Counted from the first letter of the stretch, positions 12,404-42,031 are shown. The stretch: DNA of 64,000 bases from Aliiglaciecola sp. (GCF_039982535.1 NZ_JBDWYG010000039.1:164743-228742); one strand, 5' to 3'. Translations and numbers: made by a program. The notes: generated by a model from the sequence alone, not told the origin.

Positions 12404-12982
12404 TTATTTTTTAAATGTGACGGAAAACGTCATTGGTACGGTTAAACCGATGCTTTTTAGACCGGCAAGTTCTTGTAGTTTGGCAATGCCTGGATCCAAA
12501 TCATGGCTTGCGGCCTTTATGAGAACTGGCTTAACGGTTGTGCCATGGAAGCTACCATCTTGATCTTTATTAACACTTAATTCAAGGCTGTAAGGCGCAG
12601 ACTTCCCTTTGATTGTGATTTCGCTATCAAGGGTTACCATTGCAGTGGTGCCCGCCTTCATATCCATTACAGCTTTCGGAATTTGCGCTGTAATCATCGC
12701 CTCAGGAGTATTTTCCACATCAAACAGGTAAGTTTGCATACGTTCGTTACGAATGGGAATGTTGGTTTCCACTGAACTCAAATGTACCGCAGCCTTAAGT
12801 TCACCTGCGTCACTTAGTTTCCCGGATAATTTAGTGAATTTGTGAATTTCACTAATGTGTTCATTCTTGGTTGAAATGAAACTCACACTTGATGAATCAT
12901 TATCGAGGGTCCAGCTTGCATGGGAGAATGCAGCGAATGTTGTCAAACAAACGGCTAAACTTATTAGACTAGGTGTTCTCAT
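12404..12982 (-). CDS. YceI family periplasmic lipid/polyisoprenoid-binding protein
   Basis: Signal peptide; WTLDNDSSSVSFISTK and VETNIPIRNERM. Confidence 0.88.
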   Translation of the reverse strand: MRTPSLISLAVCLTTFAAFSHASWTLDNDSSSVSFISTKNEHISEIHKFTKLSGKLSDAGELKAAVHLSSVETNIPIRNERMQTYLFDVENTPEAMITAQIPKAVMDMKAGTTAMVTLDSEITIKGKSAPYSLELSVNKDQDGSFHGTTVKPVLIKAASHDLDPGIAKLQELAGLKSIGLTVPMTFSVTFKK

Positions 12983-25693: not shown

Positions 25694-26637
25694 ATATCTT
25701 GTTCTTCTTCCCCATCAGGGAAATTTAAATACAAAGTGAGGACTTCCTCACTTCGACTAATTGATAGTTGGAGCGAATCTGCTTGATTTAATGCTGCTAA
25801 GGCTTCAATAGCCTGCTCAGGGTCAGTCAAATCCAATCCATTTATTTCTGTAATTATATCGCCTACTTTAAATCCGGCGCCTTTAAATAAGCTTGGGTTT
25901 TTACCAGGTGCAATTTTATAGCCGGCTATTAATCCATCTTGGCCTTGAACAGGTGAAACCATAAAATATTCAGTAAAGCCGCTTGGATTACGACGTATTT
26001 CTTTGGTTGTTTTCACCATATCAGCAGATAATTCTTTATGTTGTTCTTTTTCAGCCACTCTGTAGTCCACAAAGGGTTCAACAGGTGCTTGATAAGCCTG
26101 GCTTTCTTTCGAGTATTCTAACCCGTCTAACATTAAGGTTTCTCGCCTAGGACCATTTTTAATAATTACCCTATCTGCGAAGACTTCAACTAAGCTTGCG
26201 TTTGTACCATCAATTTCATCATCGATGCCATAGGTATTTTGTGAACCTCGGTTTTCAATAATTGCTGCACCAATGCCTGGCTCATCAGTTTCGACGACAC
26301 CGGTTAAGGTTAAGTTCAAACGAGTTTCAGGGGCTTCAGTGATCTCCTGTTTGACCGGGGCATTTTCTTTTGCAGTTAAGTCGCCAAACAAGTTTAAACT
26401 TTTTAATTGCGACAAACTTACCCGTGAACTTGAATTACTCGAATTATTGCCAGTTTGATTGGTTTGAAAACTCGGTTTTGCGGTAGATTCTGGTTCTGGA
26501 ATTAGACGCCAAGTCATCTCAGCTAAAAAAGCCAATAGATACAAAACCAACAAAATAACCACCAACAGATTAATCTGTGATTGATATTTGCTAATTTGCA
26601 GCCATATTTGACTTAAGTTTGTACTACTAAGGCTCAT
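25690..26637 (-). CDS. gspC: Type II secretion protein C (HR plus PDZ)
   Basis: TM, APETRLNLTLTGVV, C-terminal PDZ (GFKVGDIITEING). Confidence 0.94.
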   Translation of the reverse strand: MSLSSTNLSQIWLQISKYQSQINLLVVILLVLYLLAFLAEMTWRLIPEPESTAKPSFQTNQTGNNSSNSSSRVSLSQLKSLNLFGDLTAKENAPVKQEITEAPETRLNLTLTGVVETDEPGIGAAIIENRGSQNTYGIDDEIDGTNASLVEVFADRVIIKNGPRRETLMLDGLEYSKESQAYQAPVEPFVDYRVAEKEQHKELSADMVKTTKEIRRNPSGFTEYFMVSPVQGQDGLIAGYKIAPGKNPSLFKGAGFKVGDIITEINGLDLTDPEQAIEALAALNQADSLQLSISRSEEVLTLYLNFPDGEEEQDI

Positions 26638-26781
26638 CTTTTACCACTTCTTGGTCGATTATTGTCGCTAAACGGGGACAATGATAACCAGTAGATTAGA
26701 GGGTCACAACTATTAAAGATTAACATTACCATTTAATTACAGTTCACAGGTTTTTAAGCTTACGCGCAATAGGCTCTATAT

Positions 26782-27186
26782 ATGAAGAATAAGACAGACA
26801 ACAAAAACACTGAAATAGTTCGCTTAGACAAGTGGCTTTGGGCTGCACGGTTTTTTAAAACCCGATCTTTAGCTCGAGACATGGTGCAATCTGGCAAGGT
26901 GCAATATAATGAACAAAGAGCAAAGGCCAGTCGAAGTGTCGAATTGGGTGCGACAATTGTGCTCCCTGCCGGATTCGATAGCAAGGAAGTAATTGTTGAG
27001 GGGTTAAGTGATAAACGTGTTAGTGCGCCCCAAGCTCAATTACTTTATGCGGAAACGGAAAAAAGTATCGCGCAACGTGAAAAAAATGCAGAGGCGCGAA
27101 AATTAAGCGCATTTCATAGTCCACGACCTGAGAGTCGACCGGATAAAAAGCAGCGTCGCAAAATTATTCAATTTAAACAGCAGTAA
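26782..27186 (+). CDS. hslR: Ribosome-associated heat shock protein Hsp15
   Basis: S4 motif RLDKWLWAARFFKTRSLA, RPDKKQRR. Confidence 0.96.
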   Translation: MKNKTDNKNTEIVRLDKWLWAARFFKTRSLARDMVQSGKVQYNEQRAKASRSVELGATIVLPAGFDSKEVIVEGLSDKRVSAPQAQLLYAETEKSIAQREKNAEARKLSAFHSPRPESRPDKKQRRKIIQFKQQ

Positions 27187-27195
27187 GAGAAAGTT

Positions 27196-28092
27196 ATGTC
27201 CCAATTTGATCAGTTACATCGTTATGTTTTTACCAACGCCAACGTACGCGGTGAACTTGTCCAACTCGAAAATAGTTATCAAGAAATTCTCGATTCACAG
27301 GAATACCCTCCAGTTATTCAACAGTTGCTCGGTGAGCTTATGGCAGCGGCATCTCTTTTAACTGCAACCTTAAAGTTTAAAGGAGAAATTGCTTTGCAAC
27401 TGCAAAGTGAAGGCAGTATTAAATATGCAGTGATAAATGGCACCCATGATCAAAAACTGCGTGGTGTAGCAAGGTGGGATAATGATGTAACCGAATTGCC
27501 CACATCTCTTACCGAGCTGTTACCTAAAGGTGTGTTGGTCATTACCATTACCCCTGAAGAAGGCGAGCGTTATCAAGGAATTGTTGCTGTCGATAAACCA
27601 ACCTTATCTGAATGTTTAGAAGGGTACTTTAGCCAATCTGAACAACTACCAACCAAGGTTATTTTAAAAACCTCTTTAAGTGGTGATGTGAATAGAGCGG
27701 GTGGTTTGTTCTTGCAAGTTTTGCCAACTAGTAGCGAAATGACCAATGAGTCTGAACATACTGAATTTGCTCATTTAAGCACTATTAGCCAAACGATTAC
27801 TGCTGAGGAATTGTTAGGTTTGCCCGCCACTGAAGTACTGCACAGACTTTATCACCAAGAGGAAGTCGAACTATATCCTGCTCAAGAGGTTAAATTTTCC
27901 TGTAGTTGCAGTAAAGAGCGAAGTGCCGCAGCAATTGCCAATGTGGATAAACAAGAGTTGTTAAATATTGTAGCTGAAGACGGTGCGGTACGACTAAATT
28001 GTCAATACTGCCATCGAGAATACAGCTTTGATGCCATCGATATCGAATCTATCCATAACGGCGCATACGCTGCTCCAAAACAAACACAGTAG
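27196..28092 (+). CDS. hslO: Hsp33 redox-regulated chaperone
   Basis: GELMAAASLLTATLKF, YFSQSEQLPT, CSCS...CQYC zinc centre. Confidence 0.96.
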   Translation: MSQFDQLHRYVFTNANVRGELVQLENSYQEILDSQEYPPVIQQLLGELMAAASLLTATLKFKGEIALQLQSEGSIKYAVINGTHDQKLRGVARWDNDVTELPTSLTELLPKGVLVITITPEEGERYQGIVAVDKPTLSECLEGYFSQSEQLPTKVILKTSLSGDVNRAGGLFLQVLPTSSEMTNESEHTEFAHLSTISQTITAEELLGLPATEVLHRLYHQEEVELYPAQEVKFSCSCSKERSAAAIANVDKQELLNIVAEDGAVRLNCQYCHREYSFDAIDIESIHNGAYAAPKQTQ

Positions 28093-28140
28093 CGCTGCTT
28101 CTGCAAAGTCTAGTGCGTCAGCACGAGATAAAGACCTAAC

Positions 28141-28186
28141 AAAAAGGCCGCCAAATCATAACTACAAGTATCATTTGGCGGCCTAT
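28141..28186. terminator. Hairpin between convergent hslO and the M14 peptidase gene
   Basis: 11-bp stem GGCCGCCAAAT / ATTTGGCGGCC; A-tract at 28141 gives a U-tract on the - strand. Confidence 0.7.
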
Positions 28187-28238
28187 ATATGGGTGTCTTG
28201 TCTGATTTTATGGTCTTTTTAGGGCCCTTGATGATTCG

Positions 28239-30824
28239 CTAAGGTGCGCTAAAAAGGGTTGAGAAAAACAGGCTGTTTAAAAACAGTTTTTCGGTACCGT
28301 AAAAATAGCCTCGGAAGTTCGGATCGTCAGTAAATAAAATCACACTACCTTTGCCTTTTCTTTCTGCGACTAAACTGGTTTTGCCCGCTAACTTTTGTTG
28401 ATTTTCAGCCGACGCATAACCACTTAAAAGGGAATCTGGAGTAATCTTAACCACACTGGCGTAAGGGTTTTGAGGCGGTTCAAAGGCTAACAATCCACTG
28501 CGCTGACTGGCAATTTCTCGACGGGTATATCCGTAACCTAATGGGTGGCTAATATCCAAATCACCAGCCATCACTGCTCCACCGATAATGTCTTGTGCTT
28601 TGACCATCGACTTATCTGCATAATCTATTCGCGGTTGTGAGGCCAATTTACCTTTGCCAATATCGGCCAAAGTAAGGTTCAATAGATTCAATCCAGCCCA
28701 GCGCGCACCATCGCCAATTCCCACCAAGGCACCGCCGTTTCGTACCCATGTTGTGATCTTATTCTGCAATGAATCACTGATATCTGAATATTTGCCGTTG
28801 GTCATAACCAAATGGGTATAAGCTGACAAATCTACGTTGGATAGCCTCTGTTTTTCAATCAAAGTAACTGGTATCTGCATACGTTTGTCGAGTAAATGCC
28901 ATACTTCACCAGCCTGATAGGGAGACATACCAGCACCAATTACTAACGCGACTTTTGGTAAGCTAACTGCATCTAAACTATTACTGCCTAAGTCCATGCC
29001 AATGCTACTGGTATGGGAGCTGTTTAGGGCATGGATTTTAACACCATCTTGAATGGCAGCCTGTTGCATTATTTTATACAAGTTGTCGCTATTCGCATTG
29101 GAGTAACCGCTAATTTTATTGTTCACCGGAACAATTACACTGCCACGGCCAAAGGATTGGCTACCTGAGTCGGTTTGAGCGGTAAAAGGTTTAGTGGCAA
29201 TGCGAGGTAGATAGCCTTGCTCGAGTAATTCGTATAAGACTTTCGGGCCATTGTAATGGCTCCAGTCAAACCCATACGCAACCGTTGCTTTACTCGGCGG
29301 CTGCTGGGATGGAAATTCCACTGTTATGGCTGAATCGGCTTTGTACCTTGTACGGGTCAAAGGTTCGAAGTCTATGCCAAAGGCTAACGGTAAGGTCCAG
29401 CCAGAGACATCATAAAAGGTGTTATTTTCAAAGGTGGTAATTTTTGAAAATACGCCTTTGAGCATCCGGTAATTTTCTTGCTCAGACTCAACAATAAAGG
29501 CCTCACCTTTACGAAATGTTTTTCCGTTAACCTCAAAATCTTTCGCCAGTGGTTTAATCTGGATTTTGTTACGGGTTAACAGTTGATTGAAATGGAATAG
29601 TCTGACGGGATCTTCAGGGGCACTGTAAATATAAGCTTTGATGTCGTCTCGATCTGCCATTTTTTCTGAATTACGGACAAAATCTTGTTGGAAAGACAGC
29701 AATGCTTGACGTTTTTCTGCCGCATTTTCCAGCAGTGCTATTGCGACATGATAATAGGTGCGAATATTTTCTCGAAACGAAAGCAGACCTCGTGGGGTTT
29801 CCAGAATTCCTGCTGAACTTGCTTGCTCAAATAATATGCCTAAGCTGCCGAATAAATGGGGATATGTAGCGCCTTTGCCTAAATAAAAATTATCATATGA
29901 CTCTTGGTTAAAATACAGTTTAGCTTCGCTATCCATGAAGTCTCGGGGTCCTTGCACTACTTCATTGAGCAGTTCCATGGCCTGATCATCAATTAGTGGG
30001 TGAACACGGTCTGGCGCTCCAGGATGGAAATAGAAGGTTTTATATGAACGCATTTCATGGAAATCTGCGACTATGTTAGGCCGCCATTGATGGAATTTTT
30101 TCACCCAACTTACGGGTTCAGGTTGTTGTTGCAACATCCACTGTCGATTTAAGTCAAACCAATAATGATTGGTTCTGCCTGAAGGCCAAGGGGAACCATG
30201 TAAAGCATGATTTGGATCGGTAATAACCACATTAGACGAATATTGCCAATTCCAAGTAGACTCACGAGTATTACCATCTGGGTTGAAGCTAGCTGTGAGC
30301 AGAATGACACTGTTTTCCAATAACGAATCAATCTCTTGGCCTTGGGCTGCTGCAAGGTGGTAGGCAACGGGCATGGCAGAGTCTGTTGAACTGACTTCAC
30401 CACCATGAACACCAAAGTTGATCCAACTAATTACCGGCATATCTGCACTGATAGTGCTTTTTTTGTCGGCTGTTTGCATGGCCATATGATTTGCTTGAAT
30501 CTGAGGCAAGTTCGCCATATTTTTAGGAGAGGTGATAGTTAAGGTGACAATAGGTCGGTTTTCATGACTATAACCAATCACTTCATAATTGACCCGCTCA
30601 GACTGCGCTGCCAACTGACGAAAGTACGCTGTCATCATATTATTTTGCACCATTTTTTGGCCTAACTCATGACCCAAAAAATCTTTCGGAGTGGTGATCT
30701 TTGGATCAAACTCAGTGCTGGCCGTATATAGGCTGTCAGTTTGCTGTGCAGCGAATACTTTATGCTGCACTGAGACAGAAAATAGAAGCGCTACAGTGGC
30801 GAAGGTGAAAAGAATGTTTTGCAT
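28239..30824 (-). CDS. Secreted M14-family zinc carboxypeptidase with C-terminal class I amidotransferase-like region
   Basis: Signal peptide from MQNILFT (30824); VHGGE (HxxE), GRTNHYWFDLNR, DFHEM zinc motifs. Confidence 0.85.
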   Translation of the reverse strand: MQNILFTFATVALLFSVSVQHKVFAAQQTDSLYTASTEFDPKITTPKDFLGHELGQKMVQNNMMTAYFRQLAAQSERVNYEVIGYSHENRPIVTLTITSPKNMANLPQIQANHMAMQTADKKSTISADMPVISWINFGVHGGEVSSTDSAMPVAYHLAAAQGQEIDSLLENSVILLTASFNPDGNTRESTWNWQYSSNVVITDPNHALHGSPWPSGRTNHYWFDLNRQWMLQQQPEPVSWVKKFHQWRPNIVADFHEMRSYKTFYFHPGAPDRVHPLIDDQAMELLNEVVQGPRDFMDSEAKLYFNQESYDNFYLGKGATYPHLFGSLGILFEQASSAGILETPRGLLSFRENIRTYYHVAIALLENAAEKRQALLSFQQDFVRNSEKMADRDDIKAYIYSAPEDPVRLFHFNQLLTRNKIQIKPLAKDFEVNGKTFRKGEAFIVESEQENYRMLKGVFSKITTFENNTFYDVSGWTLPLAFGIDFEPLTRTRYKADSAITVEFPSQQPPSKATVAYGFDWSHYNGPKVLYELLEQGYLPRIATKPFTAQTDSGSQSFGRGSVIVPVNNKISGYSNANSDNLYKIMQQAAIQDGVKIHALNSSHTSSIGMDLGSNSLDAVSLPKVALVIGAGMSPYQAGEVWHLLDKRMQIPVTLIEKQRLSNVDLSAYTHLVMTNGKYSDISDSLQNKITTWVRNGGALVGIGDGARWAGLNLLNLTLADIGKGKLASQPRIDYADKSMVKAQDIIGGAVMAGDLDISHPLGYGYTRREIASQRSGLLAFEPPQNPYASVVKITPDSLLSGYASAENQQKLAGKTSLVAERKGKGSVILFTDDPNFRGYFYGTEKLFLNSLFFSTLFSAP

Positions 30825-30831
30825 GGTTGTT

Positions 30832-32412
30832 TTACCTTGATACTGAAGGTTGACGAATAGGTTGCCCCGCAAGGGTCTGATTGACTACGCTATTTTCAAT
30901 GACAGCTTGGCCATTCAATATAAGCCATTCTACTCCCTCACTCAGTTCGGTGGGGTGCAGGTAACTAGCTTTATGTTGATAGGTATTGGGATTAAATATG
31001 ACAATATCGGCTATATAACCGGCTTTCAATTCGCCCCTGTCTTTTAATCCAAAGGTTTGAGCTGGCAGGTAAGTACTACGTTGAATAAATTCTTGGGTGC
31101 TTAACCAGCCTTTTTGTTTAACATATTCACGAAACTTTTTCGGGAAAGTACCATATTTGCGGGGATGACCTGTACTTCCATCTGAAGACGTGTTGACCCA
31201 AGGCTGGGTCATATAGGCTTTCATGTCTTGATCTGACATATTGAAACTGGCTACTCGCGCATTACCTTCTATAATAATTTTGCGAGCCGCATCAATGGGC
31301 TCCATTTCCCACAAACTAGCGACCTCGGCAAGAGTTTTACCGCGTATGTCAGGACGTTTAGGATCGCTAATCAATAATGATTCAGCCCCACCTCTGCGTC
31401 GCAAGTTTTTTGCCATTTCTAATTGTAGTGCTGGCCACAAAAAGTCATCCTTCATTCTGGCCATGTAAGCTTCTTTGCTGCCAGCCATGATATATCTGGG
31501 AACTAAGCTACCTGCCACACTAGTGCCAGAAGCGCGCCACGGATATTGATCTGCGGTTACATCAATTCCCTGTTGTCTAGCCTCGTTAATAAGTTGGATA
31601 ACCTCGGCGCTTTTCCCCCACACATCTACACCAAGGGATTTGATATGGGCGACATGGACTGGAATATCTGCTTGCTCACCAATTTGAATCACTTCTTTAA
31701 TAGCATTCACAAGGCCTATGCTATAGCTGCTTTCATCGCGAATATGACTGTCATATGCGCCGTTATATTGGGCTGCCACTTTTGCCAACTCTACGACTTC
31801 ACTGGTCATAGCGTAATTCCCCGGAACATAATACAAACCTGTAGATAGTCCCAAAGCTCCAGCTTGCATCGCTTGTTCAACTAGGTTTTTCATTTCTTCA
31901 AGCTCAGCATTGCTTGGGACGCGATCTTCAATTCCCATAACCGCTCTACGAATGGAACCGTGACCAACATATAAGGCGACATTCGTACCAATACCTTGTT
32001 CTTCATATTGTTTCAGTGTTCCGGCAACATCCACATTACCGCCGCCATCGACGTTGCAAAAAACAGTGGTCACACCCTGAGTTGTGTAGTTGATATTGGA
32101 ATTGGGTTCGCCTTTACCAAAATCATTGCAGGCATGGGTATGGGTATCAATAAAGCCGGGGGCAATGATGTTGTCACCAGCATCTATGTTGGTAATTGCT
32201 GTGATATGTTCAGGCACAGAGTCGCTTACAAATGAAATCTTGCCTTGATCTATCCCAATATAACCAGCAAAGGGAGTTTGTTCATTACCACTATAGATGT
32301 TGTTACCAGTGATAATGATGTCAATTTGCTCAGCTTTTTGCGTGCAAGCGGCACAAAAGGTGATAGTGAGAAGAATCAGTGAAAAGAATCGCAATTGGCA
32401 ATTTTGGTACAT
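30832..32412 (-). CDS. N-acyl-D-amino-acid deacylase (D-aminoacylase family), predicted lipoprotein
   Basis: APGFIDTHTHAC, QGVTT, GLSTGLYYVPG, SHIRDE, HIK, DQYPW, SSDG, HPRKYGTF; signal peptide ending in CAAC. Confidence 0.88.
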   Translation of the reverse strand: MYQNCQLRFFSLILLTITFCAACTQKAEQIDIIITGNNIYSGNEQTPFAGYIGIDQGKISFVSDSVPEHITAITNIDAGDNIIAPGFIDTHTHACNDFGKGEPNSNINYTTQGVTTVFCNVDGGGNVDVAGTLKQYEEQGIGTNVALYVGHGSIRRAVMGIEDRVPSNAELEEMKNLVEQAMQAGALGLSTGLYYVPGNYAMTSEVVELAKVAAQYNGAYDSHIRDESSYSIGLVNAIKEVIQIGEQADIPVHVAHIKSLGVDVWGKSAEVIQLINEARQQGIDVTADQYPWRASGTSVAGSLVPRYIMAGSKEAYMARMKDDFLWPALQLEMAKNLRRRGGAESLLISDPKRPDIRGKTLAEVASLWEMEPIDAARKIIIEGNARVASFNMSDQDMKAYMTQPWVNTSSDGSTGHPRKYGTFPKKFREYVKQKGWLSTQEFIQRSTYLPAQTFGLKDRGELKAGYIADIVIFNPNTYQHKASYLHPTELSEGVEWLILNGQAVIENSVVNQTLAGQPIRQPSVSR

Positions 32413-32433
32413 TTTGTAGGGTACTCTATTGTG

Positions 32434-32455
32434 AAAAAGGGCGACTAAGTCGCCC
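32434..32455 (-). terminator. Intrinsic terminator-like hairpin after the TonB receptor gene
   Basis: GGGCGAC-TTA-GTCGCCC followed by TTTTT on the - strand. Confidence 0.7.
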
Positions 32456-32477
32456 GATTAAAGTGTAAAAACGCTAT

Positions 32478-35400
32478 TTAATCAAAACTCATACTTACAT
32501 TAAGATAGAAATAACGTCCTTCTGCGCTATGTAAGCTGGCTTCGTAACCATAAGTTTCATCGGCCAAAGGTGGTGCTTCATCGAAAAGATTACGTACGCC
32601 TAGACGCATTTTTGTCCCTTCCAATGATCCTTGTTCGAAGGTGTATTGACCATAAACACTAAATGTTGTCCAGCTATCTACTAACCAAAATTCACCAGAG
32701 GTATCGTTAACTGCGCCGGTGTCGTAGAAGTCGCCAACATATTTTCCATAAACCCCTGCACCCCAATTATTATAGCGCCAAGTGATTGTTCCACTTGCTT
32801 GCCATTCAGGTCGTCCGTCTAACTGAATTAAGTCACCCACGTCGTCTAGAGTCAAACCTAGCTCTTGTAGTTTTGCCGACTCAGAATCGATTGATTGGTA
32901 CGCTTTTAATAATTTAGCAGCGTTAAATTTGAATGAGAAATCACCGATTTCTGTATTGTTTAACTTATAGTAAGCGCCAATATCGAGACCTTCTGTGACA
33001 CGAGAATCTAGGTTTTCGAATAAACCGATAATCTCAGTCATATCGCCCACGGCTTCTAAACCTGAACCTTCATAAAACGCAATGTCATCGGCATTTGCTT
33101 CTTCACGAATAACATTTGGATTAGAACTACCATTTAAACGTTGATAATAATCTAAATCAGCAATGTTTTGATTAGAGCGAATACCAATTAAGTCTTCTTG
33201 TTCGATACGCCAGTAATCTGTAGTTAAGGTTAGATTATCGATAAATTCAGGAGTAAACACCAATCCTAAACCGTAGTTGTAATCTTTCTCTGGTTTCAGT
33301 TCGGTGTTACCGTAACGAATGTTTTCAGCACTATCACCACTGCTACATTGGCTGATGCTGTCTAACTCACCCTTGTTAATTTGTGCTTGGCAGCGATAGT
33401 AATCAATTGGATAGTTTACTCGCGTGGTGCTAGCCGTGTGCAATTGTTCTAGGTTAGGCGCACGGAAGCCTTCGGCGTATGAGCCACGAATTTGCACAGA
33501 CTCAACTGGATACCAGCTTAAAACTGCTTTGGGTTTAAATACATCACCAACGTCATTATAACGCTCATAGCGACCAGCCACTTGGAAGTCCAATTTATGT
33601 ACAAGTGGAATATCCATTTCAGGATTAACTAATGGACCTGCAAACTCAACGAAGGCTGATAACACGTTACGTGAACCATCTGAATTTGGTTGTCCACTGG
33701 AACCCATTACATCCGTTGCGTATGCTGCGCCTGTGACACTATCAGTGTAAACCGTCGTACCGTTTAGTCTGTCATCATAGATATTTTCGAAGCTTTCATA
33801 GCGCCATTCGGTACCAAAAGCTGCACCTACATTGCCTGCTGGCAAACTGAAAAGGTTTGCGTTAGAAAATTTGAAATCCACTAGACCTAAGCCGGTTTCC
33901 CCTGAACGACTTACATCAATCAGGAAACTATCGATTGTTTCTTGGGAGTTGCAAGTTGCGCCGCAAAAGGTGTTATAAGCAGTATCATCTAGACGATTTA
34001 CTGCATCTTGGAACAAACTTAGACTAATACGGTTATGGGTGGTATCAACGGTTTTAGCTTCAGAATAAAGGGCTGCAGAGTCCCATTCCCAATCATTGTA
34101 TGAGCCAGTAGCACCACCTAAAACACGGAAAGAGGTATTTTTCACGTTGATTTTACGGGTTCCGGCATCTACTACGCGGTAAGCATTAATTGAAATGTCT
34201 AAACCTTCAGCGGGCGTATCATATCCAGGTATTCTATTTGGACCACTACCTAGAGGGTTCCAGTAAGCAGTGTTAGCAATGGTAACTGGAGCGGAGGTTA
34301 GTGTGGCGGTCTCAGCACGTTGAGAGTTGGACTCTGCCCAATAATAACCAAGTTCACCGTACAGGCTAACCTCATCGTTTAGTTCATGATTTAAATAAAC
34401 GAAGGTATTTAATCGCTCCGTTTCTGGGATCATAGTACGTACGCTATTGGTATTGTAGGCTTGCGTATTGGTGGTAATACTGCCGCTATCTACACATAAA
34501 CCATTGTCCAGAACACATTGCTGATTTGTGTCTGTAGCATCAACGGGCTCAATGTGAAAACGTCCTGCAGAAGATGTAAGGCCAGTCACTGCTTGAGTGG
34601 CATCAAATCGACCCCACGGGGTTGTGGTAGATGTATTGCGGAAGTTAGTGTCTCCTTCCCAATCTGTGCCCACTAAATAGCTGCGTCTATCCGCATCTGC
34701 GGCGTAATCTAGTTCAGAGGCCATGACTTCTGAACCATGATAGTAATTTACTGCGGTGGTGATATTGGTCATGCCATCGTTAATATCCCAGCCCGCTAAA
34801 GCATTTAAGTTTACTTTTTCTCTGCTGGTATTTTCTGCTTGGCCATACTGGACGTCGAATTTGTAGCCAGCAAAATCTTTACTCATTTCAGTGTTTACTA
34901 CACCTGCTACGGCATCAGAGCCATAAATAGCGGCGGCACCGTCGTGTAGGATCTCAACTCGGTCGATTCCTAATACAGGAATAGAGTTCATATTTACGGT
35001 GGTAACTGGTACAGAGTTTTCTGTTTGTGTGCCTGGGTGTTGCACCATTCTTCTGCCATTAAACAGCACTAAGGTGTTACCTGTACCAATGCTGCGCAGG
35101 TTAATTGATGCGACATCACCACGGGATTGGTATACACCGCTGACTACGTCGTTACCATTAAAGTTGACATTACCATTGCTCGGAATAGACGCGAATAATT
35201 CAATTCCTGAGGTTGCGCCAATCGCTTCTATATCAGCAGCGTCAATTAATGTAACAGGTAACGCACCGGTTATATTTGCGCCTTTAATGCTAGAACCTAC
35301 GACAATAATCTTTTCTACGTCTTTAGCTTCGTCCTTCCCATCAACCTTAGGAGCAACTTGTTCTACGCTAGTTTGCTGGTTTTGTTTTTCAATGGATAGA

Positions 35401-35522
35401 TTAGCTTGATCATTTTGCTGCTGTGCTGTGGCTAAGCCAGAAATGGAAAGTGATCCGATGGCAGCGAGTATCGCAATATTTAGTCTACTTCTTCGGTAGT
35501 GAGATGTGTTGGACTTTGGCAT
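32478..35522 (-). CDS. TonB-dependent receptor
   Basis: Signal peptide, TonB box EKIIVVGS, plug motifs (INLRSIGTGNTLVLFNGRR, IDRVEIL, AIYGSDAVAGVVN), barrel ending RNLFDEAPP...GRYFYLNVSMSF. Confidence 0.94.
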   Translation of the reverse strand: MPKSNTSHYRRSRLNIAILAAIGSLSISGLATAQQQNDQANLSIEKQNQQTSVEQVAPKVDGKDEAKDVEKIIVVGSSIKGANITGALPVTLIDAADIEAIGATSGIELFASIPSNGNVNFNGNDVVSGVYQSRGDVASINLRSIGTGNTLVLFNGRRMVQHPGTQTENSVPVTTVNMNSIPVLGIDRVEILHDGAAAIYGSDAVAGVVNTEMSKDFAGYKFDVQYGQAENTSREKVNLNALAGWDINDGMTNITTAVNYYHGSEVMASELDYAADADRRSYLVGTDWEGDTNFRNTSTTTPWGRFDATQAVTGLTSSAGRFHIEPVDATDTNQQCVLDNGLCVDSGSITTNTQAYNTNSVRTMIPETERLNTFVYLNHELNDEVSLYGELGYYWAESNSQRAETATLTSAPVTIANTAYWNPLGSGPNRIPGYDTPAEGLDISINAYRVVDAGTRKINVKNTSFRVLGGATGSYNDWEWDSAALYSEAKTVDTTHNRISLSLFQDAVNRLDDTAYNTFCGATCNSQETIDSFLIDVSRSGETGLGLVDFKFSNANLFSLPAGNVGAAFGTEWRYESFENIYDDRLNGTTVYTDSVTGAAYATDVMGSSGQPNSDGSRNVLSAFVEFAGPLVNPEMDIPLVHKLDFQVAGRYERYNDVGDVFKPKAVLSWYPVESVQIRGSYAEGFRAPNLEQLHTASTTRVNYPIDYYRCQAQINKGELDSISQCSSGDSAENIRYGNTELKPEKDYNYGLGLVFTPEFIDNLTLTTDYWRIEQEDLIGIRSNQNIADLDYYQRLNGSSNPNVIREEANADDIAFYEGSGLEAVGDMTEIIGLFENLDSRVTEGLDIGAYYKLNNTEIGDFSFKFNAAKLLKAYQSIDSESAKLQELGLTLDDVGDLIQLDGRPEWQASGTITWRYNNWGAGVYGKYVGDFYDTGAVNDTSGEFWLVDSWTTFSVYGQYTFEQGSLEGTKMRLGVRNLFDEAPPLADETYGYEASLHSAEGRYFYLNVSMSFD

Positions 35523-35631
35523 TATGTGTTTTCCTAGGTTCTTCCTAATTTACTTAGAAATTTATTATTTTTGCGGCTACTACACTCTACAATTATGTTT
35601 CTCAACACAATTGATAAATAATCTGCTAGTT

Positions 35632-35646
35632 ATAGCCTGTGGTTAT
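35632..35646. promoter_or_regulatory. Candidate LysR recognition site upstream of the TonB receptor operon
   Basis: ATAGC-CTGTG-GTTAT, T-N11-A core; matches the 36734-36748 palindrome with one arm mismatch. Confidence 0.55.
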
Positions 35647-35840
35647 GGGTTGGTGTAGAAAGACTCTGTATTTCTACTTGGCAAGTATTGTTGTGTGCAG
35701 CAAGCTTAGGTTAGTGTTTCAAGTTGTAATGTTTTTTGCAGTTTCTTAATTTTAAATTAAGAGGCCATGACACTGCAAATGTTAATGCTGTCAAAATCAC
35801 CCTTATGTTATCCTGCGACGATTCCAACTTGGGGAAGTTA

Positions 35841-36737
35841 ATGCGTTTACGTCATATCGAAGTATTTCATGCTATTTACACAACAGGTTCAATAACTAAC
35901 GCGGCTAAATTACTCTATGTATCTCAGCCTTCCGTTTCTAAAGTGTTGTCTCATGCAGAACAACAGCTCGGGTTTGATCTATTCCTACGTAATAAAGGAA
36001 AACTGATCCCCACAAGCGAGGCCAAAACCCTTTTTCCGGAGATAGATAAACTATATAAACAGCTTCGTTCGATAAATGCGTTAGCTGAAAATATTCATCG
36101 AAGTGATAGTGGCATCATTGATATAGCGCTAACCCCCGGACTTGGGTTTGGTGTTATTCCTCGCGCCATTGCTAAATTTAAAGAAGTGCATCCCCATGTC
36201 CAGTTTAAATTACAAACTATGCACAATGATGATGCCCTGCAAACCTTATTGGAACATAAGTGTGACTTAGCGCTGCTGTATTCCTCTCCTCCTCTACCGG
36301 GGATCCAAGAAGTTGAATTAGGGACCAGTGAAGTTGTCATTTTATACCCTAAAAAATCATTTCCCGAGAATAGCCAAAAAGTTAATCTTGAGTCTCTCGC
36401 TGAGCATGAATTGATTAGTATTTGGGACAGTGGACCGCTTGGGGATTTAGTTTTAGGTCGCTTCGAGTCGTTAGGAATGGAAACCCACAGTAATATGCAG
36501 GTTGATACCTATTTCATTGCCGCGAGTTTGGTGGATAAAGGGGTGGGATGTTGCACCATTGATAAGCTGACCGCCATGAGCAATATTACCGATAATATTG
36601 GTGTCTCTGCTTTTAATCCGGCTCTCGATTTCAAAATTAAAGGGTTACATTTGGAAACCAGACCCCTATCTCGGATTTGTGAGCACTTTTTGGATTTTGT
36701 GAGGGCCGAACTGGCGCTAGTCAATACACAACAATAA
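35841..36737 (+). CDS. LysR family transcriptional regulator (DgcR-like by context)
   Basis: MRLRHIEVFHAI...SITNAAKLLYVSQPSVSK HTH; start set at 35841. Confidence 0.93.
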   Translation: MRLRHIEVFHAIYTTGSITNAAKLLYVSQPSVSKVLSHAEQQLGFDLFLRNKGKLIPTSEAKTLFPEIDKLYKQLRSINALAENIHRSDSGIIDIALTPGLGFGVIPRAIAKFKEVHPHVQFKLQTMHNDDALQTLLEHKCDLALLYSSPPLPGIQEVELGTSEVVILYPKKSFPENSQKVNLESLAEHELISIWDSGPLGDLVLGRFESLGMETHSNMQVDTYFIAASLVDKGVGCCTIDKLTAMSNITDNIGVSAFNPALDFKIKGLHLETRPLSRICEHFLDFVRAELALVNTQQ

Positions 36738-36748
36738 CCTAGAGTTAT
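36734..36748. promoter_or_regulatory. Candidate LysR recognition site upstream of dgcN
   Basis: Perfect palindrome ATAAC-CTAGA-GTTAT (T-N11-A), about 60 bp upstream of a TACCAT -10 candidate at 36792. Confidence 0.6.
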
Positions 36749-36826
36749 GACTCACCCAAATCAAACTAATTTAGTTAAGCCAAAATATCTTTACCATGGA
36801 GTAATATCTATTTTAAAGGAATCTTG

Positions 36827-37825
36827 ATGAATATTAACTATCCGTATTTGCTATTTGTAGGAAACGCTACGGATTCCCTTAGCATTAAAATGGCTCGCAG
36901 TGCTGCTGATTGGAGTCCAGAAAAATGCTTAGCAGAATACCGATTACCTGGATGCACTGTGACTACAGGTTGTCCTGCTATGAATATTCAGCAAGCGGCT
37001 CAAGCTGGCGCAAAAAGTTTCGTGCTAGGGTTTGCCAATAGCGGTGGATTCCTCGACCCTCAATGGATTCCCACCATACTGGAAGCTATGGATGCCGGTA
37101 TGGATATTGTCAGTGGATTACACGATAAACTCACCGATATTCCTGAATTGCAGCAAAAAGCCAAGGCCCTTAATTTACAGTTAATTGATATTCGCCATCC
37201 GGTTACTCGGTTTAAAACCGGAACAGGTAAAAAGCGCATTGGTAATCGTCTGCTGACCGTGGGGACAGACTGTTCCGTGGGTAAAATGTATACAACCCTT
37301 AGCCTCACAAACGAAATTCAGCGCCGCCAAGTGCCTGCCACTTTTAGGGCCACCGGCCAAAGTGGTGTGCTGGTCTCGGGTGATGGAGTTGCCATTGACT
37401 GTGTTATTGCCGATTTCATTTCCGGCGCAGCAGAAAGTCTTAGTCCAGAAAACAGCTCAGAACATTGGGATATTATAGAAGGACAAGGTTCTTTGTCACA
37501 TCCAGCGTTCGCTGGCGTAAGCTTAGGGTTATTGCACGGGTCACAACCTGACTCGCTGGTGGTTTGTCATGCACTAGGTCGGGAGCACATGCGCGGCCTC
37601 CCGTTACAGCCCTTACCCACAATTGAACAAACCATTAATCTCAATTTGGCCCATGCAAAGTTAACCAACGCCCAAGCTAGAGTGGTGGGCATTGCCATCA
37701 ACACTTCCTCGGTGGATGCTGAGCAAGCCCTGCAAATTTGCCAATCAATTAGTCAGCAAACCGGCTTACCCTGCTCTGATCCCATTCGCCACGGTGTCAC
37801 CTCAATTGTAGATAACCTGTTATGA
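36827..37825 (+). CDS. dgcN: D-glutamate N-acetyltransferase (DUF1611 family)
   Basis: PYLLFVG, LTVGTDCSVGKMYT, FRATGQSG, DFISGAAE, IEGQGSLSHP, LLHGSQPD; directly upstream of dgcA. Confidence 0.85.
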   Translation: MNINYPYLLFVGNATDSLSIKMARSAADWSPEKCLAEYRLPGCTVTTGCPAMNIQQAAQAGAKSFVLGFANSGGFLDPQWIPTILEAMDAGMDIVSGLHDKLTDIPELQQKAKALNLQLIDIRHPVTRFKTGTGKKRIGNRLLTVGTDCSVGKMYTTLSLTNEIQRRQVPATFRATGQSGVLVSGDGVAIDCVIADFISGAAESLSPENSSEHWDIIEGQGSLSHPAFAGVSLGLLHGSQPDSLVVCHALGREHMRGLPLQPLPTIEQTINLNLAHAKLTNAQARVVGIAINTSSVDAEQALQICQSISQQTGLPCSDPIRHGVTSIVDNLL

Positions 37826-38805
37826 CCTTAGCAATTAATATTAGTACTCAGTCTTTTCCTCTGAAATCCGCTTTTCGTATTTCCCGTGGGGTTAAAACGA
37901 GTGCGGAAGTGGTGGTTGTGTCTATCACTGATGGTAAATATCGTGGATGGGGTGAAGCTGTCCCTTATGCCCATTATGGCGAAACCATTGAGAGTGTTTG
38001 TGAACAGCTAAAAGGTGTTCAAAATCAAATTGTCAGTACCGAGCAGCATAGTGAACTAAGCCAGTTATTAGCTCCAGGTTCGGCTCGAAATGCCTTTGAT
38101 TGTGCCCTTTGGGACTTGCGGGCGAAACAACAAGGGCGCAGCGTTGCTGAGCTGGTTGGGGTGTCACTATGCTCGTCTTGTCATAGTGCGCAAACCATTA
38201 GTATCGACACTGTGGATAATATGGCGTTAGCGGCGCAACAGCTAAAACACAATAAAGTGATAAAAGTAAAGTTAGATGAACAGGATGTGGTGCAACGAAT
38301 TCAGGCTATTCATGCTGTTTGTCCTAACAGTCAGATTATTGTTGATGCCAATGAAGCATGGAGTCTTGAATTGCTAACACAGGTGGTGGAACCGCTACAC
38401 GCCTGTAACGTGGCATTAATTGAACAGCCTTTACCTAGTGGTAAGGATCAGGTTTTAGCTGGATTTCAATCGAGTATTCCACTTTGTGCTGATGAGTCCT
38501 GTCACACTGCAGATGACTTGGAACGTTTGCTTCCCTTATATCAAGCGGTAAACATCAAATTGGATAAAACTGGTGGATTGACTGAAGCTTTAAAGTTAAT
38601 GAAGTTGGCTAAACAGCATAATCTAAACGTTATGATAGGTTGTATGGTGGGATCATCTCTTGCTATGGCGCCAGCATACCTATTGGCTGGCGATGCGGAC
38701 TTTATTGACCTCGATGGGCCAGCGTTAATTGCTAACGACCGCCCGGGTGGTTTTGCATTTGTAGATGGCGAAATGGCGATAAATAGCCAACCTTTATGGG
38801 GTTAA
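37822..38805 (+). CDS. dgcA: N-acetyl-D-glutamate racemase / dipeptide epimerase (enolase superfamily)
   Basis: FRISRG, ARNAFDCALWD, KVK, DANE, IEQP, CADE, NIKLDKTGG, DLDG. Confidence 0.83.
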   Translation: MTLAINISTQSFPLKSAFRISRGVKTSAEVVVVSITDGKYRGWGEAVPYAHYGETIESVCEQLKGVQNQIVSTEQHSELSQLLAPGSARNAFDCALWDLRAKQQGRSVAELVGVSLCSSCHSAQTISIDTVDNMALAAQQLKHNKVIKVKLDEQDVVQRIQAIHAVCPNSQIIVDANEAWSLELLTQVVEPLHACNVALIEQPLPSGKDQVLAGFQSSIPLCADESCHTADDLERLLPLYQAVNIKLDKTGGLTEALKLMKLAKQHNLNVMIGCMVGSSLAMAPAYLLAGDADFIDLDGPALIANDRPGGFAFVDGEMAINSQPLWG

Positions 38806-38845: not shown

Positions 38846-40138
38846 TTAACTAATTGGTAATGACACTCTGGCTACTAAGCCGCCTTGGGAATGGTTACTC
38901 AGTTCGATTTTACCTTTATGAAGGCTGACAATTCGTTTGATGATGGCTAAGCCGAGTCCTGAACCACCACTACCTCTGGCTTTATCACCTTGGGTAAATG
39001 GCTGAAACAAGTCTTCAATATTTTCTGTGGGGATGCCAGGGCCGTAATCTCGGACTTCAAAATACACCTGTTTATTACGCTTATCATGATAGCTAGTAAT
39101 CAGGATGTTTTCACTGCCATAACGAAAGGCATTTTCAATGAGGTTATCTAACACTCGTTTGATTGCAATCCGTCTTATCATCACCTTAGGTAGTTCAGTT
39201 AATTGCGTATCGATGTGGTAATTTTCTTGAATATTACGAGCATGCACAACATCTTCAATCAACTCGTTCAAAGACAACATCTCACGACGCTCTCGGGTAT
39301 CTTGACGCACATAATGAATAAACTGATCGATAATGTCGTTCATGTCTTCAATGTCGTGGACGATTCCATCTTTTATCCATAGCTGTTCGTCGGGCAGCAT
39401 TTCTGTTGCCAATCGTATGCGCGTTAAAGGGGTGCGCAAATCATGGGAAATGCCCGCAGTTAATAGCGCGCGGTCATCTTCTAACTGCTTAATACCCTTC
39501 GACATTTGATTAAACGCGCTGGTGACCGCAATTAACTCACTTGCCCCTTCTTCTTCTAATGGTGCCGGGACCTTTCCCTTAGCTACTTCTAGCGCTGCCA
39601 TTTGTAAGGCGTGAATGGGTTTGTTTAAGCGTCGCACAAAAATCCATCCGCCAGCGACACTCAAAATACCGATGACGATCAAATAAATGGTAAGGGGAGA
39701 GATATCGCCTTCACTAAAGCTTGCCATGGGAATGGATATCCACACGTTTGGATCTTGTGGCGGGTTTACCCAAATTAAGAAAGGTTCTGAGGCTGAGATC
39801 CTAACGTCTGCTTCTCCACCGAGTAAATCGGAAATCTGACGAGAGAAAAATTGGTAATAAATAGCCTGCTGCAATCCACTTTCCACAGCTTGTTTTTCGC
39901 TGTATATGCGAATATTTGTAGCATCAAAAATGTGACTTTGGGTTTGCGGATTGAGGTAATCGACCTCATCCAGAAACACCATGTTAATTTGCTTGGCGAT
40001 TAATGAATTTATCTGTTGATAATTAGGCCGGATAAAATAATAAGTGACTGATAGATAGGACACCACTTGGTTAATCAGCAGCAATACACCAATTAATAAG
40101 ACGGTTTGTCCAAATGCACTTTTAGGAAAGATTCTCAC
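38846..40138 (-). CDS. envZ: Osmolarity sensor histidine kinase
   Basis: [43 protein letters not shown]. Confidence 0.94.
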
Positions 40139-40177
40139 CAGTTTTGATTCAACCTAACTAACTTGGGGTAAACACAT

Positions 40178-40900
40178 TTATTGCGCTTCGCCATCGGGTA
40201 CAAATACATATCCTAATCCCCAAACAGTTTGAATATAACGGGGATTGGCAGGATCGACTTCAAGCATCCTACGTAAACGCGATACTTGAACATCAATGCT
40301 ACGCTCTAATGCACTGTAATCACGGCCTCTGGCCAAGTTCATTAGTTTGTCTCTTGATAACGGCTCTCTAGGGTGGGTTACTAAGGATTTTAACACCGCA
40401 AACTCGCCACTGGTTAAGGTAAGGGCTTCCCCGTCTGCAAACATTTCGCGGGTGGCAAGGTTCAATTTATACTTACCAAATTCCACAATCTGCATTTCTT
40501 GCGAGGGCGCACCTGGGGCTTCGTTGGTTTTACGACGTAGTACGGCTTTAGCTCGGGCCAGTAGTTCTCTAGGGTTAAAGGGTTTAGGCAGGTAGTCATC
40601 AGCGCCCATTTCTAAACCAATGATGCGGTCTACTTCATCACCTTTAGCGGTCAACATTATAATTGGAATTTCATTTTCTTTTTGGCGTAGACGTCGACAG
40701 ATTGAGAGGCCATCTTCACCTGGCAACATTAAATCCAGTACTAACAAATGAAAGTTCTCGCGTTCTAATAAACGATCCATTTGCTCAGAGTTAGCAGCTG
40801 AACGAACTTGATAGCCCTGTTCTACTAAGTAGCGTTCTAGCAAGCTACGTAGGCGCATATCATCATCAACAACCAATACTTTCTGTGTTTCTTGTCCCAT
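40178..40900 (-). CDS. ompR: Response regulator OmpR
   Basis: KVLVVDDDMRLRSLLERYL, DLMLPGEDGLSICRRLR, RYIQTVWGLGYVFVPDG; start at MGQETQK. Confidence 0.96.
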   Translation of the reverse strand: MGQETQKVLVVDDDMRLRSLLERYLVEQGYQVRSAANSEQMDRLLERENFHLLVLDLMLPGEDGLSICRRLRQKENEIPIIMLTAKGDEVDRIIGLEMGADDYLPKPFNPRELLARAKAVLRRKTNEAPGAPSQEMQIVEFGKYKLNLATREMFADGEALTLTSGEFAVLKSLVTHPREPLSRDKLMNLARGRDYSALERSIDVQVSRLRRMLEVDPANPRYIQTVWGLGYVFVPDGEAQ

Positions 40901-41047
40901 GTCGACCCTCAAAAGGAAATACCCGTTAATCACACCACTATAAATGAATACTAGGGAATTCAAAAGATTAGCTAAGTAACAATGTTATGTGGAGTGTTAC
41001 AAATTGTTTGTGAGAAGCCGTATAAACAACATTTAATAAAAACCTTG

Positions 41048-42031
41048 TTACAACACACCCAATATTTTGTCCATGATCCAATTGGTATGGCTGGCGATAG
41101 CAGCTTGGCTGGGATGGCTATTTCCCCCCTTTAAATGCTCAGCTATGGCTTGCACAAACGGGCCCTGAATTGGATCAGGTGTAGGCATAGCTATGGTTTC
41201 GCTGCCCTTGTCTGTATAAATAGTTGCTGGGTTGTCACCAAAAATAGCAAACTTTAGATGACCTTTACTACCGAGTATTTGTACTTTGTCTTGATATATA
41301 TGACCGCCGAAGTTCCAGCTTCCTATGCCAGTTACACCAGATTCGAACAATAAGTTGGCAACGATGGCGTCGTGGGCGGTGTATAAACCCTGTTGATTGC
41401 CGCAAATTCCTTGGGCTTGTTTTACTGGTCCCAGCAAAAACGTCATGATATTTAAACCGTGACTAGCCAAGTCGTCAAAGTATCCTCCAAGGGCAACACT
41501 TTTGTCGGTACGCCAGTTAGGAGTTTGACTTAAATCTTTAGCAGATGGAAAGCGGCTGTATTGCCAAGATATATGCCTAACATCACCAATTAACCCTCTC
41601 TCGATGATGTTTTTGAGCGTTATAAAACCTGGTAAGGAGCGCCGATAATAAGCGACAAAAAGAGGTAGAGCCTGAGATTCAAAGGCATTCTCTATTTTTT
41701 TGCTTTCGGCGAAATTTAACGCCATCGGCTTTTCAATGCAGCAAATTTTGTTTGCTTTGGCGACCTTTAATGCCAAATCACAATGACTATCTGGTGGTGT
41801 CGCTATATAAACAGCATCAATATTTGGATCATCAATCATAGCTTGAGCACAGGTATAATGATGGGGGATATTATGGCGTGAGGCAAAATCTAGCGCTTTT
41901 CCTGGTGTGCGAGCGCATACTCCGTATAGTTCGAATTCTGTAGTTTGCTGATAGGCAGGGCCGCTTTTCTTTTCGCAGACACTGCCGCAACCAATCATTC
42001 CCCAACGAATTGAGTCAGATTGGTTGTCCAT
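41048..42031 (-). CDS. Gfo/Idh/MocA family oxidoreductase
   Basis: WGMIGCG, DAVYIATPPDSH, CIEKPMA, GGYFDDLASH. Confidence 0.9.
   Translation of the reverse strand: MDNQSDSIRWGMIGCGSVCEKKSGPAYQQTTEFELYGVCARTPGKALDFASRHNIPHHYTCAQAMIDDPNIDAVYIATPPDSHCDLALKVAKANKICCIEKPMALNFAESKKIENAFESQALPLFVAYYRRSLPGFITLKNIIERGLIGDVRHISWQYSRFPSAKDLSQTPNWRTDKSVALGGYFDDLASHGLNIMTFLLGPVKQAQGICGNQQGLYTAHDAIVANLLFESGVTGIGSWNFGGHIYQDKVQILGSKGHLKFAIFGDNPATIYTDKGSETIAMPTPDPIQGPFVQAIAEHLKGGNSHPSQAAIASHTNWIMDKILGVL

Follow-up and report, generated by a model that had tools for sequence, protein, structure and literature searches.

How a marine bacterium able to catabolize D-glutamate (D-Glu) might obtain it from the compounds in which it is bound is the question raised by a locus of Aliiglaciecola sp. 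D-Amino acids locked in peptidoglycan remnants form a large, slowly cycling pool of marine organic nitrogen, and the enzymes DgcN and DgcA account for the use of free D-Glu, not for its release from conjugates or its capture at low concentration. The DgcR-DgcN-DgcA pathway of Pseudoalteromonas sp. CF6-2, reportedly described by Yu et al. in 2023, is said to start from free D-Glu, which DgcN acetylates, after which DgcA racemizes N-acetyl-D-Glu to N-acetyl-L-Glu. In a 64,000-nucleotide stretch of Aliiglaciecola sp. DNA (NZ_JBDWYG010000039.1:164743-228742; this whole stretch is called the window below), positions 28239-38805 hold a block of six intact genes in which a TonB-dependent receptor, an amidohydrolase, and an M14 zinc carboxypeptidase on the minus strand are divergent from lysR-dgcN-dgcA on the plus strand. 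An earlier annotation of the window by a model, referred to here as the sequence-only reading, had listed these six genes; all are present where it placed them, and that observation is correct throughout. The block is a TonB-dependent utilization locus grafted onto a known catabolic pathway, and it probably constitutes one regulon that scavenges D-Glu from D-Glu-containing peptides or acyl compounds, with peptidoglycan stem peptides as the likeliest source.

Identity of the catabolic arm and its regulator

The window DgcN scores 491.7 bits over its full length against its NCBIfam equivalog model (cut-off 480) and is 88% identical to proteins named DgcN by NCBI. DgcA, whose start overlaps the dgcN stop codon, scores 434.3 bits against its own equivalog model (cut-off 400) and falls below the cut-off of the L-Ala-D/L-Glu epimerase (YcjG) model PRK15129 (312.3 vs 343). 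The LysR-family regulator encoded directly upstream of dgcN is probably the DgcR orthologue. It is 50-60% identical to LysRs that other Alteromonadales encode either ahead of dgcN or divergently from the receptor, and the orthologues in the position before dgcN are 50-56% identical to it. The order lysR-dgcN-dgcA is reportedly that of Pseudoalteromonas sp. CF6-2; the difference is that the predicted operator of the window regulator also lies ahead of genes for an outer-membrane receptor and exported hydrolases.

For comparison, genomes were scanned with a DgcN alignment, keeping one genome per species, which yielded 80 dgcN loci, most of them from gamma- or alphaproteobacteria and a few from other phyla. 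LysR adjoins dgcN in 26 of them. Three Pseudidiomarina loci (L009, L011, which is on a plasmid, and L012) carry lysR-dgcN with a DgcR box and no adjacent dgcA, and locus L170 carries dgcN alone, divergent from a receptor operon and likewise with dgcA not adjacent; DgcA in these four cases may be encoded elsewhere or replaced.

A predicted operator in front of both arms

The operator was sought as a LysR-type T-N11-A palindrome with the pattern ATA[AG]C-N5-G[CT]TAT, the core of which is ATAAC-N5-GTTAT. The window contains exactly two such sites, one in the regulatory region of the receptor and one in that of dgcN, which give three matches when counted by strand (0.46 expected) because a palindromic site matches both strands. 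Across the dgc loci there were 37 sites in 1.40 Mb compared to 4.0 expected from composition, and in loci containing only the M14 gene there were none in 1.01 Mb compared to 4.6 expected. More than 20 loci have the site 60-135 nt ahead of dgcN, and five have it 104-158 nt ahead of the receptor; it precedes the receptor in Pseudoalteromonas sp. KG3, Bowmanella, Aliiglaciecola, and Luteithermobacter. It also precedes the amidohydrolase-M14 pair in Paremcibacter (L005) and on a metagenome contig (L086), where dgcNA is not adjacent. In Bowmanella (L004), the gene of a LysR 60% identical to that of the window is divergent from an operon for receptor, amidohydrolase, and M14 that has no dgcNA near it; the site precedes this operon too. 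When the intergenic region between receptor and LysR genes was aligned from four genomes, the box stood out as a footprint, as did a second conserved block some 12 nt farther downstream. By way of these predicted operators, the receptor arm and dgcNA appear to share a LysR regulator.

A DgcR-type box was also observed in Sphingopyxis (L073, 16559-19336; L081; L084) between genes for a penicillin-amidase-family protein, an N-terminal nucleophile (Ntn) acylase, and a TonB-dependent receptor, about 8 kb from lysR-dgcN-dgcA. This acylase/receptor pair may be another front end of the DgcR regulon.

Conservation of the receptor-hydrolase arm beside dgcNA

Aliiglaciecola aliphaticivorans (L169) shows the same gene arrangement at the same place in its chromosome, plus an NhaC-family gene after the M14 gene. 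In Pseudoalteromonas sp. KG3, genes for the receptor, amidohydrolase, M14, NhaC, LysR, DgcN, and DgcA all lie on one strand, and in the alphaproteobacterium Luteithermobacter gelatinilyticus (L167) those for LysR, a PGA_cap protein, DgcN, DgcA, the receptor, a fused amidohydrolase, and M14 are co-linear, with a receptor 60%, an amidohydrolase 58%, and an 867-amino-acid M14 55% identical to their counterparts in the window. The fused protein (P0263; L167, 8001-10736) is a natural 911-amino-acid fusion of a CCP-like M14D domain to the amidohydrolase. A CCP-like M14 of 375-400 amino acids separates receptor and amidohydrolase in five loci of gammaproteobacteria (one each from Cognaticolwellia, Thalassotalea, and a metagenome-assembled genome, and two from Pseudoalteromonas), and this trio is divergent from GltS- or NhaC-LysR-DgcN-DgcA. 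The M14s of the sister loci L010, L013, L014, L016, and L017, like that of the Luteithermobacter fusion, are related to the bacterial CCP-like M14D enzymes (3L2N, PaCCP 4A37, 4B6Z) and to eukaryotic CCP5, whereas the window M14 comes from another, 861-amino-acid family without a significant solved relative. Since the M14 position is occupied by a non-orthologous CCP-like enzyme in these loci, two unrelated M14 lineages have been recruited to one slot.

Among the 80 dgcN loci, 12 had an amidohydrolase homologue (41-48% identical) within 10 kb of dgcN, and 7 had a receptor homologue within that distance (40-44% identical, with more than 80% of the length aligned); the 861-amino-acid M14 stood beside dgcN in none. 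Unbiased clustering of the open reading frames neighboring dgcN ranked the amidohydrolase just after DgcA, DgcN, and LysR, tied with an ABC-transporter ATPase. dgcNA is thus accompanied more constantly by the amidohydrolase and the receptor than by the M14. A functional tie between the receptor/hydrolase arm and dgcNA, as the sequence-only reading proposed, is borne out by four independent lines: synteny in gamma- and alphaproteobacteria, the survey of dgcN loci, the M14-amidohydrolase fusion, and the LysR operator before both arms.

The exported hydrolases

The amidohydrolase carries the residues expected of its fold (HxH, two His, and Asp ligands): H91, H93, H223, H253/H256, and D411 are invariant in the alignment and align to the metal ligands of 1M7J and 3GIP. 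Its closest solved relatives are the N-acyl-D-Glu deacylase Bb3285 (3GIP, 2e-56) and the D-aminoacylases 1M7J and 9G5M, and a profile of seven locus-associated amidohydrolases lies at roughly equal distance from the D-aminoacylases and the D-Glu enzyme (about 1e-80). Bb3285 reportedly hydrolyzes N-acyl-D-Glu and L-Xaa-D-Glu dipeptides, a finding attributed to Cummings et al. in 2009. The window enzyme shares the amidohydrolase fold and metal ligands with Bb3285 (3GIP/3GIQ) and the D-aminoacylases, but it differs from them in being an exported lipoprotein, where the characterized enzymes are cytoplasmic, in having an invariant Asp122 in place of the bridging Cys96 of classical D-aminoacylases, in an insertion of about 35 amino acids with an invariant NLRRRGG motif, and in a family score below the cut-off. 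By its sequence, it is a distinct exported subfamily. The N-terminus, MYQNCQLRFFSLILLTITFCAAC followed by TQ, is lipobox-like, and all amidohydrolases of dgc-type loci have signal peptides or lipoboxes, usually a clean lipobox (LVGC, LAGC). With signal peptides in the window proteins and clear lipoboxes in the amidohydrolase homologues, the labels “lipoprotein” and “secreted” given by the sequence-only reading stand.

According to a review, Arg295 of Bb3285 gives D-Glu specificity, and the bridging Cys is also absent from “cluster B” enzymes typified by Gox1177 (PMC12149444). In the amidohydrolase family of the window, the specificity-loop region contains basic residues that are conserved (R/K306, R319, and RRR338-340). 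Enzymes of the Gox1177 type are said to prefer hydrophobic D-residues. One 732-amino-acid amidohydrolase homologue (P0295) is fused to a cyclophilin-type peptidyl-prolyl isomerase domain (PF00160).

For the M14 protein, the most likely start is the ATG at 30824, giving a length of 861 amino acids that matches every homologue, and the signal peptide ends between KVFA and AQ, with Sec export predicted. It matches Pfam Peptidase_M14 (PF00246) at 61.5 bits (cut-off 21.6), and its zinc ligands, H140-x-x-E143 and H256, do not vary among 20 homologues and correspond in alignment to the ligands of MpaA. Its long C-terminal region shows a weak resemblance to DUF4350. The sequence-only reading had pointed to MpaA as an M14 enzyme acting on gamma-D-glutamyl peptides, an analogy that proved weak. 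No PDB sequence matched the 861-amino-acid protein at E≤0.01, and a profile search returned only CPA4 at E=0.3; pairwise comparison to E. coli MpaA gave E=0.005, with similarity at the zinc motifs only. In an AlphaFold2 model with a mean predicted local distance difference test score (pLDDT) of 68.6, the catalytic core was of low confidence, and the top Foldseek matches of the model were carboxypeptidases A, B, and T (M14A/T), generic only. An MpaA-like identity (an M14C gamma-D-Glu-meso-diaminopimelate amidase) was rejected by sequence, profile, Foldseek, and pairwise comparison, and the analogy is a clan-level statement that holds no evidence on the window M14.

The 860-amino-acid M14 family was also traced on its own. 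In 80 metagenomic loci that encode members (35-52% identical), one had the amidohydrolase, none had dgcNA, and none had the receptor. A family-wide tie of this M14 to dgcNA or to the amidohydrolase was rejected, with 0 of 80 in both directions.

The receptor and the hairpin that follows it

The receptor, with its Plug and barrel, is co-oriented with the exported degradative enzymes. Matches to heme and siderophore receptor models are weak (about 70 bits, with cut-offs above 316), and a siderophore, heme, or B12 receptor role was rejected, all matches being far under the cut-offs. The block contains no SusD-like lipoprotein partner, and the SusC signature scores 20.6 in the receptor (cut-off 46.2); lacking a SusD-like gene, the locus is like a polysaccharide utilization locus (PUL) and is not one.

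Of all sites in the block, the hairpin in the gap from receptor to amidohydrolase gene looks most like a terminator. A hairpin with a T-run occurs at the equivalent position in seven genomes (the window, L001, L004, L166, L167, L169, and L170), with stem sequences that differ, and it is probably an intra-operon attenuator giving more receptor than hydrolase transcript. In Alteromonas sp. C1M14, a receptor-amidohydrolase pair (L166; 74% and 61% identical to those of the window) lies on a contig other than that of lysR-dgcNA (L007) and is convergent with a beta-lactamase-family (PF00144) gene; the region upstream of its receptor shows only a one-mismatch box, ATAACCCGCATCTAT.

Proposed mechanism

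In the mechanism that we propose, substrate would be imported across the outer membrane by the TonB-dependent receptor. In the periplasm, the exported M14 would strip residues C-terminal to D-Glu, and the membrane-anchored lipoprotein would then cut the N-acyl-D-Glu amide, such as that of L-Ala-D-Glu, to free D-Glu, both roles being suggested by family and context. Relatives are expected to take D-Glu over the inner membrane with a regulon-encoded carrier of the NhaC, GltS, or SDF type, and the window strain presumably with one encoded elsewhere. In the cytoplasm, D-Glu would be acetylated by DgcN, and the N-acetyl-D-Glu racemized to N-acetyl-L-Glu by DgcA. DgcR would bind the ATAAC-N5-GTTAT boxes before both arms, and liberated D-Glu or a derivative would induce the whole system. 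Placing the deacylase outside the cytoplasm would avoid a futile cycle with DgcN, because the DgcN product is itself an N-acyl-D-Glu. Peptidoglycan stem peptides are the likeliest candidate substrate and the most economical one to suppose, with gamma-glutamyl polymers second; stem peptides fit the logic of the E. coli ycjG-mpaA-pgrR-mppA locus.

Several observations weigh against this scheme. The catalytic roles are all assigned from sequence family and setting. The amidohydrolase scores 204.9 bits against NCBIfam PRK09061, where the cut-off is 340, its profile is equidistant from the broad D-aminoacylases and the D-Glu-specific enzyme, and the position of Bb3285 Arg295 falls in the unalignable insertion of about 35 amino acids, where the HMMER alignment breaks. 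The M14 is not detectably MpaA-like, and its family is mostly stand-alone, with 0 of 79 other members (35-51% identical) near the amidohydrolase, dgcNA, or the receptor. About 85% of dgcNA loci have none of these partners. The conserved hairpin between the receptor and hydrolase genes means that their co-transcription is not assured, and neither the block nor the 64-kb window encodes a GltS, SDF, or NhaC carrier. In favor of the scheme, a distance tree of the M14s placed all amidohydrolase-linked members (those of the window, KG3, Bowmanella, Paremcibacter, L086, and Luteithermobacter) in one clade; taken with its mostly stand-alone occurrence, the family is a general exported carboxypeptidase of which one branch was recruited to the regulon.

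The missing carrier has left a trace in the window. Relatives carry an NhaC-family gene in L001 and L169, GltS in L010, and SDF in L037 and L041, and in A. aliphaticivorans the nhaC gene lies between the M14 gene and hslO, where it is deleted in the window strain. The stretch of about 150 nt downstream of the M14 gene (28093-28238) is homologous to the upstream region of A. aliphaticivorans nhaC, aligning to L169 12580-12760, and it retains a DgcR box minus one base, inside a hairpin followed by a T-run; the counterpart box in L169 is at 12643. The surviving upstream region of nhaC and the lack of a carrier in the window indicate that this strain lost the inner-membrane transporter of the regulon.

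Alternative substrates and roles

The same architecture could serve a gamma-glutamyl polymer or oligomer (poly-gamma-D/L-glutamate) as the natural substrate, with the deacylase and the M14s acting as exo-hydrolases that release C-terminal gamma-linked D-Glu; we consider this unlikely, though still worth weighing in view of what surrounds dgcNA in other genomes. An exported protein of about 690-744 amino acids with CarboxypepD_reg and PGA_cap (CapA-family) domains is encoded beside dgcNA in L010 (12771-14843), L013, L014 (10618-12684), and L167 (334-2568), in L014 with a DgcR box 92 nt upstream of its gene. The CCP-like M14 of sister loci matches CCP5, a deglutamylase acting on gamma-linked Glu, gamma-glutamyltranspeptidase (GGT) genes neighbor dgcNA in 8 of the 80 loci, and in chemical terms the bond of N-(gamma-glutamyl)-D-Glu is of the N-acyl-D-Glu type. 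However, the window itself has no PGA_cap protein, GGT, or CCP-like M14, the PGA_cap family is known from synthesis rather than degradation, the abundance of poly-gamma-D-Glu in seawater is uncertain, and no endo-depolymerase is evident. Rather less probably, the receptor, amidohydrolase, and M14 form a module of broad use for N-acyl-D-amino acids or peptides with D-amino acids, not one specific to D-Glu, and dgcNA would lie beside it in some lineages only because D-Glu is one of several products. The amidohydrolase profile, as near to the broad D-aminoacylases (9G5M, 1M7J) as to the D-Glu enzyme, would suit such a role, as would the absence of the bridging Cys, a feature shared with the Gox1177-type enzymes of “cluster B” (PMC12149444), and the fact that Bowmanella, Alteromonas sp. 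C1M14, and Paremcibacter have the module with no dgcNA next to it; N-acyl-D-amino acids in general were also the proposal of Tang et al. 2012 (PMC3400609). Yet a DgcR box and a LysR orthologous to DgcR are found with the module also when dgcNA lies elsewhere, glutamate-type transporters (GltS, SDF) occur in the same divergons, and the conserved basic residues named above occupy the specificity-loop region.

That the two arms are adjacent by coincidence, the receptor operon serving an unrelated nutrient (a siderophore, heme, or oxidized chitin products) and the amidohydrolase being an OngB-like carbohydrate de-N-acetylase, seems very improbable. Carbohydrate deacetylases of the OngB type are indeed homologous (9KB1, 7e-40) and the receptor has its weak matches to heme and siderophore models, but those matches stay far from their cut-offs, OngB matches less well than the D-aminoacylases do (140 vs 195 bits), and coincidence is hard to reconcile with the synteny in two bacterial classes, with the fusion protein, or with the operator that both arms share. 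The OngB-like role was rejected on its lower similarity and on a genomic context that is wrong for it.

As a separate observation, dgcNA of alphaproteobacteria (L027 and other Thalassospira/Rhodospirillales; Caulobacter L041) is often flanked by a gene of the N-formylglutamate amidohydrolase (FGase) family and a GNAT gene (10 and 7 loci, respectively), by gamma-glutamyltranspeptidase genes (8 loci), and by ABC peptide transporters and SDF glutamate symporters. No PGA_cap, GGT, FGase, or penicillin amidase gene was found in the window. Given the PGA_cap proteins, the CCP5-like M14s, GGT, the FGase-family genes, and the sphingomonad acylase, gamma-glutamyl polymers and other N-acyl-D-Glu compounds stay candidate substrates beside the preferred stem peptides.

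Beyond the window, the chances appear evenly balanced that DgcR controls a hitherto undescribed, taxonomically widespread “D-glutamate harvesting” regulon, in which a dedicated TonB-dependent receptor and several uncharacterized subfamilies of exported enzymes would dismantle peptidoglycan-derived or gamma-glutamyl refractory marine organic nitrogen and feed DgcN/DgcA. This joint proposal takes in, as its enzyme subfamilies, the Cys-less lipoprotein D-aminoacylase, the 860-amino-acid M14 clade, CCP-like M14D, PGA_cap proteins, and penicillin-amidase-like acylases.

Comparison with known systems and significance

A functional parallel is the E. coli ycjG-mpaA-ycjY-pgrR-mppA locus for murein tripeptide, which likewise joins an enolase-superfamily epimerase (YcjG, 42% identical to the window DgcA), an M14 amidase (MpaA), a LysR regulator (PgrR), and uptake of a D-Glu peptide (MppA). 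Its enzymes, however, are cytoplasmic and its uptake is by an ABC system, whereas the window hydrolases are exported and uptake is TonB-dependent; PgrR and the window LysR are not orthologous (20% identity), and E. coli epimerizes a dipeptide where the window pathway acetylates and racemizes D-Glu. The receptor followed by exported hydrolases and a local regulator resembles TonB-dependent utilization loci of Proteobacteria, of the carbohydrate-utilization (CUT) and PUL-like kinds. Tang et al. 2012 noted that a cluster of marine TonB-dependent transporters (TBDTs), “cluster 427”, adjoins a D-aminoacylase in the gammaproteobacterium NOR5-3 and predicted N-acyl-D-amino acids as substrate (PMC3400609); their paper describes neither a connection to DgcR/dgcNA nor M14 partners nor an operator. 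In a search that did not extend to the 2023 DgcN/DgcA paper, we found no paper that connects the pair of TonB-dependent receptor and D-aminoacylase to DgcR/dgcNA, reports the operator, or proposes functions for the M14s. The receptor/hydrolase arm is a real and coherent extension of the DgcR/DgcN/DgcA pathway, and an apparently uncharacterized one. The strain of the 2023 study, a Pseudoalteromonas, probably carries a similar cluster, and a partial earlier observation there is therefore possible.

For the release and capture of D-Glu, the locus and its relatives provide a testable parts list: a single receptor, between two and four exported hydrolases, inner-membrane carriers of three kinds, and a regulator whose operator is defined. 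They also suggest a possible physiological role for the bacterial CCP-like M14s and for the exported D-aminoacylase subfamily, neither of which has an assigned function, and they offer marker genes for D-Glu scavenging in metagenomes.

Features and surroundings of the locus

Table 1 Genes, predicted operators, and hairpins of the block and its downstream edge, numbered from the first base of the window
Feature	Position	Strand	Remarks
Inverted repeat GGCCGCCAAAT...ATTTGGCGGCC followed by T-run	28146..28183	-	just downstream of M14 gene; loop with decayed DgcR box AT-ACTTGTAGTTAT; from alignment to A. aliphaticivorans
M14 zinc carboxypeptidase	28239..30824	-	861 amino acids; maximal open reading frame 28239..30872; Pfam Peptidase_M14
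Lipoprotein amidohydrolase, D-aminoacylase / N-acyl-D-Glu deacylase family	30832..32412	-	526 amino acids
Terminator-like hairpin GGGCGAC-TTA-GTCGCCC followed by TTTTT	32439..32455	-	receptor-amidohydrolase gap
TonB-dependent outer-membrane receptor	32478..35522	-	1014 amino acids; signal peptide, Plug, beta-barrel
Predicted DgcR (LysR) operator ATAGCCTGTGGTTAT	35632..35646	.	110 nt upstream of receptor start; four-genome footprint
LysR-family regulator, probable DgcR orthologue	35841..36737	+	start likely about 35841
Predicted DgcR operator ATAACCTAGAGTTAT	36734..36748	.	overlaps lysR stop; 79 nt upstream of dgcN start
DgcN, D-glutamate N-acetyltransferase (DUF1611 family)	36827..37825	+	NCBIfam NF041892
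DgcA, N-acetyl-D-glutamate racemase, enolase superfamily	37822..38805	+	NCBIfam NF042940

The block is bounded by hslO on one side and envZ on the other. The flanks (23627-28092 and 38846-42933) encode gspC, gspD, hslR, and hslO on the one hand and envZ, ompR, a Gfo/Idh/MocA oxidoreductase, and a phosphoribulokinase/uridine-kinase-family gene on the other, and no tie of these flanking housekeeping genes to the locus was seen. The G+C content of the block is that of its surroundings, and the best matches of the window proteins, which place the organism in the Alteromonadaceae, are Aliiglaciecola and Alteromonas proteins at 84-88% identity.

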